Positions 19,301-31,300 of a stretch of DNA of 64,000 nt are shown piece after piece; within the stretch, counting starts at the first letter, position 1, and each line of letters opens with the position of its first letter. A program made the position numbers. This DNA comes from Escherichia coli O127:H6 str. E2348/69 (GTDB lineage Bacteria > Pseudomonadota > Gammaproteobacteria > Enterobacterales > Enterobacteriaceae): assembly GCF_000026545.1 (NCBI RefSeq), contig NC_011601.1. One strand, written 5' to 3'.

Positions 19301-22300
19301 CTTGATCATTAAAGCTCAGGGCCATGTTGTGGCGGGTCAAACACCGCTGTATGAAATCAAAAAGTAATCTGCTTTATGCCTGATGCGACGCGGCAGCGTC
19401 GCATCCAACAATAAAAAGCGGCAGGGATATTCTCTGCCGCTTTTTTTGTCTGAGATTACATTGGGAAGATAAAAACAGCGCCTGCACAAAGCGCCAGAAT
19501 GCGGATGAGATACATTGGTACAGAGAACACCCAGAATTCGGGAAGTTTGTATTTCCCCATTCCGAGGATCATGGCTGGCATTCCGTCAATAGGCATATAG
19601 CCGCCGTTCCAGCCTGAAATCACCACCGCAATCGCTGCAGCGGTCGGGTTAAGCCCAAGGCTGGTACAGGCGGCAATGGCGATGGGGGCAAAAATATAAA
19701 CAGACCCCATATTCGAACCCGTGAAGGTGGCGCAGGTACTGGTAAGCAAAGCAAAGGCGACAATAAATACAAATGGTGAGACGCCAGAACCGAGCACACC
19801 TGCAACGGCATCGCCAACCATCGCCGTAAAGCCGGTGCCCGCCAGTGCATCAGCTACACCGATCACCCCCGCCATCATTAAAATGACCGGCGCTCCCATA
19901 TGATCGCGAACTTCTTTAAAGTCCAGTACATCGATCATCAGAACAAACGCACCCGCAAGACCCGGAATAACGAAGGCGATATTTCCCAGAATGTTCATTA
20001 GCATCATGCCGATAACGCTGACAGCGAATGCGGCAATAGTGCAATATTCTTTCCAGGCAGGAAGGGCGTTAAACGTTTCCTCGCGTGCCGCCAGCGCATC
20101 CTCGGAAGCATCCGCAATGGGATGATCCGGAAGAAAACGGTAGGCAATAAGACTCCATGCGAGGAACGCCGCTGACATGATGAGATTCACCAGCGCAAAG
20201 CGCCCCATCGAAATCTCCTGATGAAAACCCGCGGTTTCGAGTACGGTCGCCGTAACGCCAAAGAGAAGCGCGAGATTGATAGGAAGAAGCGGGTGGTTGG
20301 TGGCAAATCCCAGGGGCATCATTAATTTCGATGTTGGTAGCTTTTTACTGTACGGAATGGTGGATACCAGCGACAGAATCAGCACGTAATAACCGGTCGC
20401 GCCGGTGCCTGCAAGACTGGCACCCAGCATAACAATGACTAACAACAGCCCGTAGCTGCGGTAACTGCCTTTATTGACCAGGCTTATCATCGCAGATTTA
20501 ACGTTGCTGATAAGCCGGGTTTTTTGTAGCGCTGCCATGACCACCATAAACCCTGCAATCATCACCACGCTTGGATTGACGAATCCGGCAAAAGCCTGTT
20601 GAACGGTCGAAAGTCCCGAGACAACCAGCAATAAACACGCAAGCAGTGGCGGTGCGCCAAATGGCATTTTGTCCGACATGATCAGCACGATCATCAGGAC
20701 CAGTATTCCTAATGCCAGGATCATTTCCATTGTCATTTTTTCTCTCCTTTTAGGCTTCCAGCATGTCGCGCGGTACCTTAAAGACCGCTTTGCGTACTGA
20801 CGTAGCCGCGCCAATCGCGCACAGCGCCTGGTGAGGTTCCTCAGGCATAAAGACGGCGAAATCACCGGGGTGTAGAGTGATGGCGACACTGTTTTCAGGG
20901 GATGGGGCGATAAACAGATCGGGCTTACGTTCTTCATCGTTTTCGCGAGCGATGGGCCGCGTTCCCGCATTAATGCCCTCACAACCAGTAATCACCACCT
21001 GGATATCGGCCCACAGATGGTGATACTCCGTATGGCGGAGTTCGGCGGGTTGCGTGTCTGAAGTTCCCAGCGTGCAGAACCACCGACATCCTTCAGGTTG
21101 CCAGCGACCGTCCTCTCTGGCGGATAACGCCGATAACGAACACTCCGGGCACAGCAGAATATTTCTCACCCAGGCGGGAAGCCCCGCCAGCGACAAATGG
21201 TTGAGATTACCGATAATCATGATGCCTGCCCCTTAACCCACTCGGGGGAGATGCGCACGTACTTGATGGCCTGACGCCACCAGGTGTAAGCGATATGTAG
21301 CGTACCGTCCGGGCTTTGTTTGATGCTGGGGTAGGAGAACTCACGATTTAGCTTTTCCAGGGAATTGTTGGTCATGCAGTTGCCGTCGCCTTCATCGAGA
21401 TTGCGCCGCCACGGCCAGCTTTTCCCACCATCGGCAGAAATCGCTACCGTCATCGGCGCGCGTGGGGCCCCCCAGAAAGCGGAGCGTCCGACGGCTGTCG
21501 GTTCTTTGCGGCTGTCGTCGCCATCGTCGATTTCGTCATAAAGCGACGCGCGACGTTCTACTGCGCCTGCCGCACTCATCGCGTTGTACACCAGCGCCAG
21601 TTCGCCGCTGGCAAGCGTCGTTACCTGAATAGACGAATTGTTGTTGGGCAATTCGGTAGCTTGCGGCACCGACCAACTCTCGCCGTTGTCCACTGAATGG
21701 CTGATATAGATGTTGTCTGCCCAACGGCTGCGAAAGAGAGCAACCAACGTACCGTCGTGCAGCATTGTGATATTCATATGAACGCAGCCGAGACTTTGCG
21801 GCACCTCGACATCGCGCCATGAGTGACCACCGTCAGCGGAAATTTTCACTGCGCTGATATCATCATTGCCGACCCATTTTTCGCCGGGTTGGGTACGGCA
21901 ATAAAAGACGGGAAGCAGCCAGTTACCGTTATCAAGCACCGTGATCGGCTGGCGAATGAACGTGCCGGGTTTATCGAGCAGGGTGGCAATCTCGCCCCAG
22001 GTTTGCCCAAGGTCGTCAGACTTACGGTAGCGGACGATGGCCGTGTCCTGATTACCGGATATTTGTGCGGTCCATAGCAGCCACAGCACGTTATCCGGCG
22101 CGAGAAACAGCACCGGGTTTTGCTCTGAACGCGTGTCATCGTGGGAAAGTTTGACCGCATCGCTCCACTGCGTTCTGCCAGCGGGCAATCGTGATCCCCA
22201 GACAGAAATATCGGCAATACCTTCCTGTGTTCCCGCAAACCAGACGCACATTAATGCGCCATCCGGCATTGGCAGAATATTCGCCGCGTGGTTTTGCGGG

Positions 22301-28300: not shown

Positions 28301-31300
28301 AAATACGGTTCATGGTCGCTGTTTAATATCGCGCATCTTAATGAACTGACAGAGATTATTACGGATAGTCAGCTTGATGGGCAGACGCGTAGAACGCTTG
28401 CGTCCTTGTCGACGCGTTTAATCATAGCCGACTAATCTATGACTCTGCGGCCAGCTCATCCGGCAATTTAATAAATGCGTCAGGCTGGCGACGTTTGGCC
28501 TTACGTTTCCAGCGCGAGGATCTGCTGGCAGTAGCGCAGAAAACGCCCCAATATCTTACGCAAAACCATTTTTTCGCTAACTAACAGTTGTCAGCCTGTC
28601 CCGCTTATAAGATCATACGCCGTTATACGTTGTTTACGCTTTGAGGAATCCACGATGAGTGAGGCAGAAGCCCGCCCGACTAACTTTATCCGTCAGATCA
28701 TCGATGAAGATCTGGCCAGTGGTAAGCACACCACAGTACACACCCGTTTCCCGCCGGAGCCGAATGGCTATCTGCATATTGGCCATGCGAAATCTATCTG
28801 CCTGAACTTCGGGATCGCCCAGGACTATAAAGGCCAGTGCAACCTGCGTTTCGACGACACTAACCCGGTAAAAGAAGATATCGAGTATGTCGATTCGATC
28901 AAAAACGACGTAGAGTGGTTAGGTTTTCACTGGTCTGGTAACGTCCGTTACTCCTCCGATTATTTTGATCAGCTCCACGCCTATGCGATCGAACTGATCA
29001 ATAAAGGCCTGGCGTACGTTGATGAACTGACGCCGGAACAGATCCGCGAATACCGCGGCACCTTGACGCAGCCGGGTAAAAACAGCCCGTACCGCGATCG
29101 CAGCGTTGAAGAGAACCTGGCGCTGTTCGAGAAAATGCGTACCGGCGGTTTTGAAGAAGGTAAAGCCTGCCTGCGTGCGAAGATCGACATGGCTTCGCCG
29201 TTTATCGTGATGCGCGATCCGGTGCTGTACCGCATTAAGTTTGCTGAACACCACCAGACTGGCAACAAGTGGTGCATCTACCCGATGTACGACTTCACCC
29301 ACTGCATCAGCGATGCGCTGGAAGGTATTACGCACTCTCTGTGTACGCTTGAGTTCCAGGACAACCGCCGTCTGTACGACTGGGTACTGGACAATATCAC
29401 CATTCCTGTTCACCCGCGCCAGTACGAATTCTCGCGCCTGAATCTGGAATACACTGTGATGTCCAAGCGTAAGCTGAACCTGCTGGTGACCGATAAGCAC
29501 GTTGAAGGCTGGGATGACCCACGTATGCCGACCATTTCTGGTCTGCGTCGTCGTGGTTACACTGCGGCTTCTATTCGTGAGTTCTGCAAACGCATTGGTG
29601 TGACCAAGCAGGACAACACCATTGAGATGGCGTCACTGGAATCCTGCATCCGTGAAGATCTCAACGAAAATGCGCCGCGCGCAATGGCGGTTATCGATCC
29701 GGTGAAACTGGTTATCGAAAACTACCAGGGCGAAGGCGAAATGGTTACCATGCCGAACCATCCGAATAAACCGGAAATGGGCAGCCGCCAGGTGCCATTT
29801 AGCGGTGAGATTTGGATCGATCGCGCCGATTTCCGCGAAGAAGCTAACAAGCAGTACAAACGTCTGGTGCTGGGTAAAGAAGTGCGTCTGCGTAATGCTT
29901 ACGTCATTAAGGCAGAACGCGTCGAGAAAGATGCCGAAGGCAATATCACCACCATCTTCTGTACTTATGACGCCGACACCTTAAGCAAAGATCCGGCAGA
30001 TGGTCGTAAAGTCAAAGGTGTTATTCACTGGGTGAGCGCGGCACATGCGCTGCCGGTTGAAATCCGTTTGTATGACCGTCTGTTCAGCGTGCCGAACCCT
30101 GGTGCTGCGGATGATTTCCTGTCGGTGATTAACCCGGAATCGCTGGTGATCAAACAGGGCTTTGCTGAACCGTCGCTGAAAGATGCGGTTGCGGGTAAAG
30201 CATTCCAGTTTGAGCGTGAAGGTTACTTCTGCCTCGACAGCCGCCATTCTACGGCGGAAAAACCGGTATTTAACCGCACCGTTGGGCTGCGTGATACCTG
30301 GGCGAAAGTAGGCGAGTAAGTTTACGTTGTCGGATAGAGCGTTTACGCCGCATCCGGCAAGAAATATGCAAATTATCCCAAACGCCGCGCTCTGCGGCGT
30401 TTTTTTCTGCTTTTCTTCGCGAATTAATTCCGCTTCGCAATTTATCCATAAAATAAATTTAAAATCACAAAACATAATTAAATAAAATGTAACCGCTTTC
30501 ATCTTGCTGGAATTTCACGTTTTTATTCTTCTGCAAGCCTTTCAACTGCAAACTTAAGCCTTGTAACAAAAATCATCAAAATATGTGCGGTTGCTCATGT
30601 TCTTACATTCTGGTTACAGAAAGAGATTGATAATTCGCGTCGCGAAAAATAGTCTGTTCCTGTAGTCAGCGAGACTTTTCTCAACGCTACTTTTTTAATT
30701 TTTATTTTTTTCGCTGTTCACCTTTGGTGCAGCAATTTATACGTCAAAGAGGATTAACCCATGCGTGCGTTTAGTGGCAAACGTAGTACGCTGGCGCTGG
30801 CTATCGCCGGTGTTACAGCTATGTCGGGCTTTATGGCAATTCCGGAGGCTCGCGCCGAAGGATTCATCGACGATTCAACCTTAACCGGCGGTATCTATTA
30901 CTGGCAGCGTGAACGCGACCGTAAAGATGTTACCGACGGCGATAAATACAAAACTAACCTTTCTCACTCCACCTGGAACGCCAACCTCGATTTTCAGTCT
31001 GGTTATGCTGCTGATATGTTCGGCCTTGATATTGCCGCGTTTACGGCGATTGAAATGGCGGAAAACGGCGACAGCTCTCACCCGAACGAAATCGCGTTTT
31101 CAAAAAGTAATAAAGCCTATGACGAAGACTGGTCCGGCGATAAAAGCGGTATAAGCCTGTATAAAGCAGCGGCCAAATTTAAATACGGTCCGGTTTGGGC
31201 GAGGGCAGGTTATATTCAGCCAACCGGTCAGACGCTGTTAGTGCCACACTGGAGCTTTATGCCGGGTACTTATCAGGGGGCGGAGGCCGGGGCGAATTTT

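Follow-up and report, generated by a model that had tools for sequence, protein, structure and literature searches.

A nine-gene islet between nagE and glnS in B2-type Escherichia coli: a candidate pathway for a seven-carbon ulosaric acid

The nagE-glnS islet and its junctions

The window analysed here is a stretch of 64,000 nucleotides from Escherichia coli O127:H6 strain E2348/69 (assembly GCF_000026545.1, contig NC_011601.1) and is 100% identical to the chromosome of that strain. Between the nagE stop codon at 19367 and the glnS start codon at 28655 it carries nine open reading frames (ORFs), which coincide with the RefSeq gene models and lie where an initial annotation, made from the sequence alone, had placed them. 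The nine genes are intact and are arranged in two divergent operons, with gaps of 3, 59, 35, -4 and 13 bp on the minus strand, exactly as first quoted. We propose, with a probability that we put at roughly 0.4, that they encode one DeoR-controlled pathway for a C7 2-keto-3-deoxy dicarboxylic sugar acid. The best candidate is 3-deoxy-D-lyxo-hept-2-ulosaric acid (Dha), a rare sugar of the pectin domain rhamnogalacturonan-II (RG-II). The features of the locus are as follows.

19418-19447, plus strand: nagE intrinsic terminator (hairpin 19418-19440, T-run 19441-19447), assigned from sequence and alignment; its core sequence is also present in K-12
19456-20736, minus strand: anion permease of the SLC13/DASS-CitMHS type, 426 residues (Pfam CitMHS 1.4e-21, Na_sulph_symp 3.5e-12; 'SLC13 family permease' in PGAP)
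20750-21220, minus strand: YhcH/DUF386 protein, 156 residues (TIGR00022, 97.3 bits, cut-off 45.5)
21217-22386, minus strand: cytoplasmic sialidase-fold (BNR_2) protein, 389 residues (Pfam BNR_2, 4e-65)
22422-23180, minus strand: TerC-family membrane protein (NCBIfam YkoY/YjbE below their cut-offs; Pfam TerC found in the Klebsiella orthologue)
23240-24127, minus strand: DapA-like class I (Schiff-base) pyruvate lyase (TIGR00674 dapA, 189.9 bits, cut-off 206.15)
24131-25288, minus strand: iron-containing alcohol dehydrogenase (Fe-ADH), reaching no NCBIfam equivalog cut-off
25289-25457 (169 bp), no strand: divergent control region with two 16-bp palindromes, candidate DeoR operators
25458-26693, plus strand: DUF1537 four-carbon acid-sugar kinase, annotated as D-threonate kinase, DtnK (NF047819, 533.5 bits, cut-off 450; dtnK in PGAP)
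26686-27672, plus strand: PdxA2, annotated as D-threonate-4-phosphate dehydrogenase (decarboxylating; product dihydroxyacetone phosphate, DHAP) (NF002891, 680.3 bits, cut-off 583)
27674-28435, plus strand: DeoR/GlpR-family repressor (AgaR, GlpR and YgbI models, 160-172 bits, all below cut-offs)

The Pfam families that had been expected were confirmed where tested, by a BNR_2 match of 4e-65 and, for the others, by NCBIfam and precomputed Pfam matches. These matches support the earlier view that a sialic-acid-like module (BNR protein, YhcH and a DapA/NanA-family lyase) is joined here to a four-carbon acid-sugar module (DUF1537 kinase and PdxA2).

A base-by-base comparison with K-12 RV308 defines the islet as an insert of ~9.12 kb (19451-28570) in place of ~35 bp of the nagE-glnS spacer. 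In K-12 this spacer is 202 bp long, in keeping with the statement in the initial annotation that the two genes are neighbours ~0.2 kb apart there and that the islet is absent. Homology to K-12 stops at ~19450, directly after the T-run of the nagE terminator, and restarts at ~28571, upstream of the glnS promoter. The suggested placement between terminator and promoter is confirmed, whereas the true right end lies ~130 bp beyond that of the suggested extent (19449-28440), at ~28570. The convergent permease gene ends 8 bp past the nagE terminator. Beyond the DeoR stop codon there are ~135 bp of islet-borne noncoding DNA (28436-28570) with a terminator-like hairpin at 28479-28499.

A review of the ORFs and annotation revealed no integrase, transposase or tRNA in the insert, and no direct repeat of at least 7 bp was found at the junctions, the same outcome as at first sight. 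The comparison of base composition that had been proposed beforehand gave no shift (52.2% GC for the islet, 51.9% for the whole window). A mobile genomic island was ruled out by the lack of an integrase or transposase, a tRNA target, flanking repeats and a GC shift. Two further candidate explanations were discarded: for an anti-phage defence system PADLOC gave only a weak WYL-like match on the DeoR regulator, and for a riboswitch or small RNA (such as a Mn riboswitch ahead of the TerC gene) a search of Rfam at E values of up to 0.1 gave no match.

Linkage of the two operons across species

The best 80 species-level loci encoding relatives of the BNR protein (59-86% identity) were scored with the nine islet proteins and their neighbouring ORFs were clustered. 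Linkage was counted in the 62 loci that extend at least 8 kb to either side, and a partner gene was scored as linked if it lay no more than 9 kb from the BNR gene. All four partners (DapA-like lyase, Fe-ADH, DUF1537 kinase and PdxA2) are linked in 45 of these 62 loci; all five genes lie on one strand in 14 loci, and the gene order differs between lineages. The linked clusters span the Gamma-, Beta- and Alphaproteobacteria, Bacillus, Paenibacillus and Megasphaera. Because this linkage crosses phyla while the gene order is shuffled, it provides strong evidence, at the level of gene neighbourhood, that the two operons are functionally coupled in one system. It also fits the earlier proposal that the non-pyruvate product of the lyase feeds the kinase and PdxA2. 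Counted singly, Fe-ADH is linked to the cluster in 47 loci, the DeoR gene in 35 and the YhcH gene in 31.

The carriers comprise Pectobacterium, Dickeya, Erwinia, Pantoea, Kosakonia, the Klebsiella oxytoca group, Yersinia, Gilliamella, Lonepinella and Vibrio, together with Propionivibrio, Burkholderia, Azospirillum, Methylobacterium, Bacillus, Paenibacillus and Megasphaera. Their habitats are mostly plant-associated or root-soil, pectinolytic or gut (Pectobacterium, Dickeya, Erwinia, Pantoea, Gilliamella, Paenibacillus and rhizobia).

The typical cluster has an SSF transporter between the lyase and BNR genes (51 loci) and a short-chain dehydrogenase/reductase (SDR) of ~225 residues at its distal end (52 loci). 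In E. coli, the Klebsiella oxytoca group and Kluyvera, a TerC gene and an SLC13-type permease gene are found at the SSF and SDR positions, and among the clusters compared TerC occurs only in these three. The E. coli cluster therefore appears to be a derived variant in which both genes are lineage-specific replacements. The earlier inclusion of TerC and the permease in the module holds for the E. coli islet but not for most species, which have the SSF and SDR genes instead. Carriers in other lineages are TAXI-TRAP systems, tripartite tricarboxylate transporters (TTT), SLC13-type permeases and an extra ACS-family MFS carrier. The clusters of E. coli, Klebsiella, Gilliamella, Megasphaera and the betaproteobacteria contain no SDR, aldehyde dehydrogenase or lactonase gene, yet all retain the Fe-ADH gene.

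The plus operon and the control region

The plus-strand pair is named D-threonate kinase and D-threonate-4-phosphate dehydrogenase by PGAP, and pdxA2 overlaps dtnK by 8 bp. At annotation level, the end of the pathway would be the conversion of D-threonate to D-threonate 4-phosphate and then to DHAP and CO2. The DtnK/PdxA2 pair of Salmonella enterica, reportedly the subject of a 2016 PNAS article by Zhang et al., is said to be a D-threonate pathway in its own right. The islet resembles it in having the same two enzyme families, encoded by adjacent, translationally coupled genes beside that of a DeoR-type regulator. It differs in that the pair is joined to six more genes (permease, YhcH, sialidase fold, TerC, lyase and Fe-ADH), which suggests that D-threonate is made inside the cell instead of being imported. 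We know of no established natural source of D-threonate as a substrate for DtnK and PdxA2. The islet kinase is 40% identical to Salmonella DtnK and the islet PdxA2 is 75% identical to Salmonella PdxA2 (PMC12928451).

The control region contains the palindromes TGATTGAATTCAATCA (25307-25322) and TGATTGAATATAATCA (25413-25428), which are the sole matches to the motif in the 64 kb, where 0.10 would be expected by chance. More than 20 clusters from enterobacteria, Vibrio and Gilliamella keep the motifs in the corresponding intergenic region. They would be the operators of the DeoR protein, which is presumed to regulate both operons.

The minus operon: lyase and alcohol dehydrogenase

None of the minus-strand proteins reaches an equivalog cut-off. 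The lyase is nearer to DapA than to NanA, the two NanA models giving 110.6 bits (cut-off 382) and 144.9 bits (cut-off 281). Its residues K163, Y135, T46 and R140 align with K161, Y133, T44 and R138 of DapA (E. coli reference, verified against PDB entry 1dhp). Between 51 and 54 of the 54 cluster-linked homologues conserve the signature GTNGEF...YNIPARTGN...GIKDS[AS]G, and in 51-52 of them DapA Thr45 is replaced by Asn and Tyr107 by Phe. R138 is the residue with which DapA holds the carboxylate of its C4 aldehydo-acid substrate, aspartate semialdehyde. The islet lyase has this carboxylate-binding Arg where NanA has Leu, and the position is occupied by Arg or Lys in 51 of the 54 cluster-linked lyases. 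The retention of the Arg suggests that a C7 dicarboxylate is the probable substrate; formally, such a compound is the oxygen analogue of the product that DapA makes. The chain length is set by the downstream enzymes, since a pyruvate lyase must deliver a C4 fragment to the kinase and PdxA2.

The top matches of the Fe-ADH (190-225 bits) include 4-hydroxybutyrate dehydrogenase, lactaldehyde reductase and sulfoacetaldehyde reductase. Three observations favour reduction of the C4 aldehyde over its oxidation: the Fe-ADH belongs to the conserved core, from which aldehyde dehydrogenase and lactonase are absent; even the SDR is missing from the clusters of E. coli, Gilliamella, Megasphaera and the betaproteobacteria; and relatives of the Fe-ADH, such as the 4-hydroxybutyrate and sulfoacetaldehyde enzymes, commonly reduce anionic aldehydes. 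The suggestion in the initial annotation that the lyase releases a short aldose which is then oxidised does not agree with this picture. The islet holds an Fe-ADH gene and no gene for an oxidising aldehyde dehydrogenase or a lactonase, and the lyase Arg favours a C4 aldehydo-acid that would be reduced.

The sialidase-fold protein

The BNR_2 protein is a six-bladed β-propeller with the sialidase fold and Asp-box repeats, modelled with AlphaFold2 from an alignment (a single-sequence model, with a pLDDT of 38, was discarded). It matches no NCBIfam family, a phmmer search gave no relative in the PDB, and no signal peptide was seen on inspection. The family profile aligns best with sialidases of the Akkermansia Amuc_1547 type (E = 4e-13), and at the sequence level the protein falls outside GH33. 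In the profile alignment R221 and R309 fall on two positions of the sialidase arginine triad and Y352 on that of the nucleophile, while His203 is found at the position of the partner Glu. In a weak alignment of the N-terminal region (E = 0.06) there is an invariant His33 and no conserved Arg at the FRIP position; the invariant E55 lies within one residue of the acid/base Asp291 of NanI, again by weak N-terminal alignment. Judged from these residues, the protein appears to represent a distinct family within the sialidase fold, one which probably binds a 2-keto-acid sugar at the anomeric centre. It may be a ketosidase that acts in the cytoplasm on a small Dha conjugate, it may act as a hydratase or convert ring forms, or it may do something else.

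The BNR gene is the best conserved of the cluster, with ~60% identity between the Firmicutes and Proteobacteria proteins. A homologue with 49% identity is encoded on an apparently fungal contig (L087, GCA_051938895.1) near genes for a Zn-cluster transcription factor and a sugar transporter, and the family appears to reach beyond bacteria. Among the closest known systems we count BT1020 of Bacteroides thetaiotaomicron (PDB entry 5mqs), a protein of RG-II utilisation with a Dha-releasing sialidase-like domain.

A proposed pathway

In the proposed pathway, Dha would be taken up free or as a small conjugate, the SLC13/CitMHS-type permease importing the di-anion. In what we regard as the weakest step, the cytoplasmic sialidase-fold protein would act at the ketosidic carbon, either freeing Dha from a small glycoside or converting an anhydro or other ring form. 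YhcH would then open the pyranose ring and pass the open-chain keto acid to the DapA-like Schiff-base lyase, which would cut between C3 and C4 to give pyruvate and the C4 aldehydo-acid D-threuronate. The Fe-ADH would reduce the aldehyde of D-threuronate to give D-threonate, DtnK would phosphorylate the latter at C4, and PdxA2 would oxidise and decarboxylate D-threonate 4-phosphate to DHAP and CO2. The net conversion would be of a C7 acid to pyruvate, DHAP and CO2. DeoR would repress both operons through the two palindromes, and B2 E. coli would have acquired a variant of the cluster with a DASS-type permease and TerC replacing the SSF transporter and the SDR.

By our own reasoning from Fischer projections, the D-lyxo configuration places C4 on the left, C5 on the left and C6 on the right; cleavage then gives D-threuronate and reduction gives D-threonate. 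Dha fits because this predicted product is the isomer for which the downstream enzymes are annotated. The model also agrees with the presence of di- and tricarboxylate-type carrier families across species (DASS, TTT and TAXI-TRAP), with that of a YhcH 'openase' and with carriers that live mainly on plants, in root soil and in guts. For N-acetylneuraminic acid (Neu5Ac), YhcH is described as supplying the aldolase with open-chain substrate (PMC8141875). Three other substrates were considered and rejected: Kdo, a C8 acid, would give a C5 aldose and leave the C4 kinase and PdxA2 unexplained; C6 aldarates would yield a C3 fragment; and lipopolysaccharide heptoses would yield L-threose or D-erythrose and need an oxidation step. 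In its general form, one regulon converting an ulosonic acid to pyruvate and a C4 acid that leaves as DHAP, the proposal seems to us more probable than not.

Several observations weigh against Dha as the substrate. No islet enzyme is close to one characterised on Dha, and the kinase shares just 40% identity with the Salmonella DtnK that has been characterised, its substrate being assigned at annotation level. Free Dha needs no ketosidase, yet the BNR gene is the most conserved, and the substrate may differ or be a conjugate. To our knowledge DASS and TTT carriers do not take disaccharides, and the SSF carriers used by most clusters are better known for mono-anions. TerC is left without an explanation in the scheme, as is the SDR of most clusters. 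Thirteen of the 62 loci have an SSF-BNR-SDR trio alone and lack the lyase, Fe-ADH, kinase and PdxA2, which implies a role for the BNR protein independent of the rest of the pathway; neither these loci nor their tartrate- and talarate-type neighbours are explained by the Dha model. Pectinase genes do not adjoin the clusters examined, and the box of KdgR, the pectin regulon regulator, is absent from the Pectobacterium and Dickeya clusters.

A more far-reaching version of the proposal, which we consider doubtful, is that bacteria have in this cluster their hitherto missing route for Dha or a closely similar C7 ulosaric acid. In that case the BNR protein would be the first of a new enzyme family, with a small ulosaric-acid conjugate or ring form as its substrate and with altered catalytic residues, His replacing both the FRIP Arg and the Glu that partners the Tyr. 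B2 E. coli such as ST131, ST95, CFT073 and Nissle 1917 would then cross-feed on RG-II breakdown products from gut Bacteroides.

Comparison with known pathways and alternative explanations

The closest parallels are with two known catabolic routes. With nan sialic acid catabolism the islet family shares a toolkit of a Schiff-base lyase of the same superfamily, YhcH, the sialidase fold and, in most species, an SSF transporter. It differs in that the lyase falls well short of the NanA equivalog cut-off and YhcH of that for NanQ, Arg (as in DapA) stands in the lyase where NanA has Leu, the NanK, NanE, NagA and NagB logic is missing (NanK and NanE are not among the nine genes), and the proposed aldehyde product is a C4 acid, not N-acetylmannosamine. 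The E. coli glucarate/galactarate route uses the aldolase GarL, the tartronate-semialdehyde reductase GarR and the glycerate kinase GarK. The logic is the same as that proposed here: a keto-deoxy diacid is cleaved to pyruvate and an aldehydo-acid, which is reduced and phosphorylated. The proposed islet route would be one carbon longer (C7 to C3 and C4) and adds the decarboxylating PdxA2 step. The enzymes also differ, with a class I in place of a class II aldolase, an Fe-ADH in place of a β-hydroxyacid dehydrogenase, and a DUF1537 kinase.

The alternative that survives best, although we think it unlikely, is that the operons are two unrelated modules. The plus operon would use exogenous D-threonate, as the Salmonella pair reportedly does by itself, and the minus operon would degrade a sialic-acid-like mono-acid, be it Kdo, KDN or a different octulosonic or nonulosonic acid, to pyruvate and a neutral aldose, which the Fe-ADH would reduce to a polyol. 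The operons are indeed transcribed divergently, sialic acid loci typically include SSF carriers and YhcH, and the E. coli Kdo aldolase has no assigned gene in the literature. Pathways for some of the RG-II products secreted by B. thetaiotaomicron, including Kdo, are unconfirmed in other gut microbes (2026 preprint). However, two separate modules would not be expected from the linkage of all four partners to the BNR gene in 45 of 62 species loci, the 14 single-strand loci or the conserved operator-like pair between the operons. The islet also has no separate D-threonate transporter, its lyase has the DapA Arg and not the NanA Leu, and the growth stimulation by Kdo was reported in K-12, which has no islet.

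Two further schemes appear improbable to a similar degree. The first, put forward in the initial annotation, keeps the same C3 + C4 arithmetic and the same end module: a C7 mono-acid (3-deoxy-heptulosonate) would be split into pyruvate and a tetrose, and the tetrose oxidised to D-threonate, phosphorylated and converted to DHAP. The clusters of most species do have an SSF carrier and a small SDR able in principle to oxidise a tetrose lactol, but in the E. coli, Klebsiella, Gilliamella, Megasphaera and betaproteobacterial clusters the Fe-ADH is present with no SDR, aldehyde dehydrogenase or lactonase, and an Fe-ADH is unsuited to oxidising an aldose to an acid. A second carboxylate is indicated by the conserved Arg that corresponds to R138 of DapA and by the DASS and TTT carriers, and we know of no natural source of the 3-deoxy-heptulosonate mono-acid. 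The second is an oxidative uronate/aldarate route, in which the SDR would be a uronate dehydrogenase and the propeller an aldarolactone lactonase, cycloisomerase or dehydratase making the 2-keto-3-deoxy diacid that the lyase then cleaves. It is kept alive by the trio-only loci beside a tartrate dehydrogenase gene (Pantoea rodasii group) and a talarate/galactarate-dehydratase-like gene (Bradyrhizobium).

Least likely by far is a role of the kinase and PdxA2, as stated in a recent genome paper (PMC12928451), in pyridoxal phosphate (PLP; vitamin B6) synthesis or 4-hydroxythreonine detoxification, with the neighbouring genes unrelated to it: PdxA2 is able to catalyse the PdxA reaction (PMC9997740), but both proteins pass the D-threonate equivalog cut-offs, and tight linkage of this kind, with genes for a transporter, a lyase and a repressor, has the look of a catabolic system.

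Distribution in E. coli and earlier descriptions

The five genes from YhcH to Fe-ADH (20750-25288) were used as an islet probe against 5426 complete E. coli genomes. The probe is present in 1047 of them, always as a single chromosomal copy and with 95-100% identity. The carriers include ST131, ST95, Nissle 1917 and BEN2908, pathogens as well as the probiotic Nissle, and all carriers sampled belong to B2-type lineages. As the initial annotation had held, the ORFs are not frameshifted; all nine are also intact in a strain that is 1.3% divergent. Between E2348/69 and this strain the nine genes differ at 88 synonymous and 29 nonsynonymous positions, and the pN/pS of 0.105 indicates that they are maintained under purifying selection.

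In the Klebsiella cluster most proteins are 70-88% identical to those of E. coli, the kinase (53%) and YhcH (64%) being less similar. The cluster lies beside two PhzF-like genes and marC-marRAB in Klebsiella, Enterobacter, Leclercia, Lelliottia, Kosakonia, Citrobacter and Kluyvera (eleven loci), and no other Escherichia species was found among the best 80 loci of the species-representative scan. These two observations indicate that the nagE-glnS location in B2 strains is a secondary acquisition, old enough to have left no compositional trace.

The locus has been catalogued before. The 2026 genome paper on the avian pathogenic E. coli BEN2908 (PMC12928451) files it as region "GR 6 (nagE..glnS)" under "uncharacterized features". 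Eight islet ORFs are entered there as uncharacterised features of sugar metabolism common to APEC O1, IMT5155, RS218, IHE3034, 78-Pyelo, CFT073 and AIEC LF82. The paper also mentions a similar cluster in Sinorhizobium meliloti and ties the kinase/PdxA2 pair to PLP synthesis without proposing a pathway. GR 6 of BEN2908 and the other B2 strains is the same locus as the E2348/69 islet. The GR 6 table is without TerC, whereas all the other listed strains carry TerC in the matched region. In BEN2908 (NZ_LR740776.1, 701937-706977) an IS1A element lies inside the region matched by the minus operon; TerC is probably interrupted by IS1 and hence seemingly dispensable in that strain.

The initial statement that no characterised pathway was known for this combination holds in that none was found, but the locus had already been described as GR 6 and PGAP already names the plus-strand pair. 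Half of the locus, the plus-strand part, thus carries curated annotation already. In the literature searched, DUF1537 and sialidase were found together only in the BEN2908 paper; the 2016 papers on DUF1537 were outside the search and may mention the neighbourhood. Heptulosaric acid combined with threonate or DUF1537 was not found, and no paper on both D-threonate and pectin appeared among the 25 top-ranked matches to a broad query.

If the proposal is true, a pathway would be assigned to a cluster conserved from Bacillus to rhizobia to B2 E. coli, several members of which have only generic names. It would explain the natural origin of D-threonate, giving DtnK and PdxA2 a physiological source of substrate, and would be the first catabolic route for Dha, a signature sugar of RG-II. 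The cluster is widespread among bacteria and, within E. coli, specific to the B2 lineage in the carriers sampled. With the islet confined to 1047 of the 5426 genomes and all sampled carriers of B2 type, it could be a diet-dependent colonisation factor separating extraintestinal pathogenic, adherent-invasive and Nissle-type strains from other E. coli.

Further observations on cluster members and variants

The YhcH protein scores 91.5 bits against the NanQ equivalog, below the cut-off of 160, and belongs to the YhcH family but not to NanQ. The trio-only loci were found in the Pantoea rodasii group, Bradyrhizobium and Bacillus; the Pantoea trio also has a LysR regulator beside the tartrate dehydrogenase, and the Bradyrhizobium trio has a family III CoA-transferase gene nearby as well as the talarate/galactarate-dehydratase-like gene. 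Clues were also sought in the genes flanking the cluster elsewhere, which proved to be unrelated housekeeping genes (Zn/Mn ABC transport, choline lyase, PbpC, PmrB and aconitase). Pantoea sp. (L005) and P. stewartii (L012) keep PdxA2 and show no match to the DUF1537 kinase or DeoR, and the cluster may be decaying in these lineages.

The permease scores 56 bits against the NCBIfam DASS model, below its cut-off. An alternative GTG-start ORF of 508 residues (19456-20982, minus strand) would overlap YhcH; the start at 20736, giving 426 residues, fits the operon spacing and the orthologues. Orthologues in the equivalent cluster are 75-88% identical in Klebsiella and Kluyvera, 76% in Paenibacillus and 52% in Actinobacillus. 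In Paenibacillus ginsengihumi (L058, from 11337) the SLC13-type permease is 76% identical to that of E. coli, whereas the adjoining lyase and Fe-ADH are only ~40% identical, a difference which suggests that the permease gene has been exchanged between phyla on its own.

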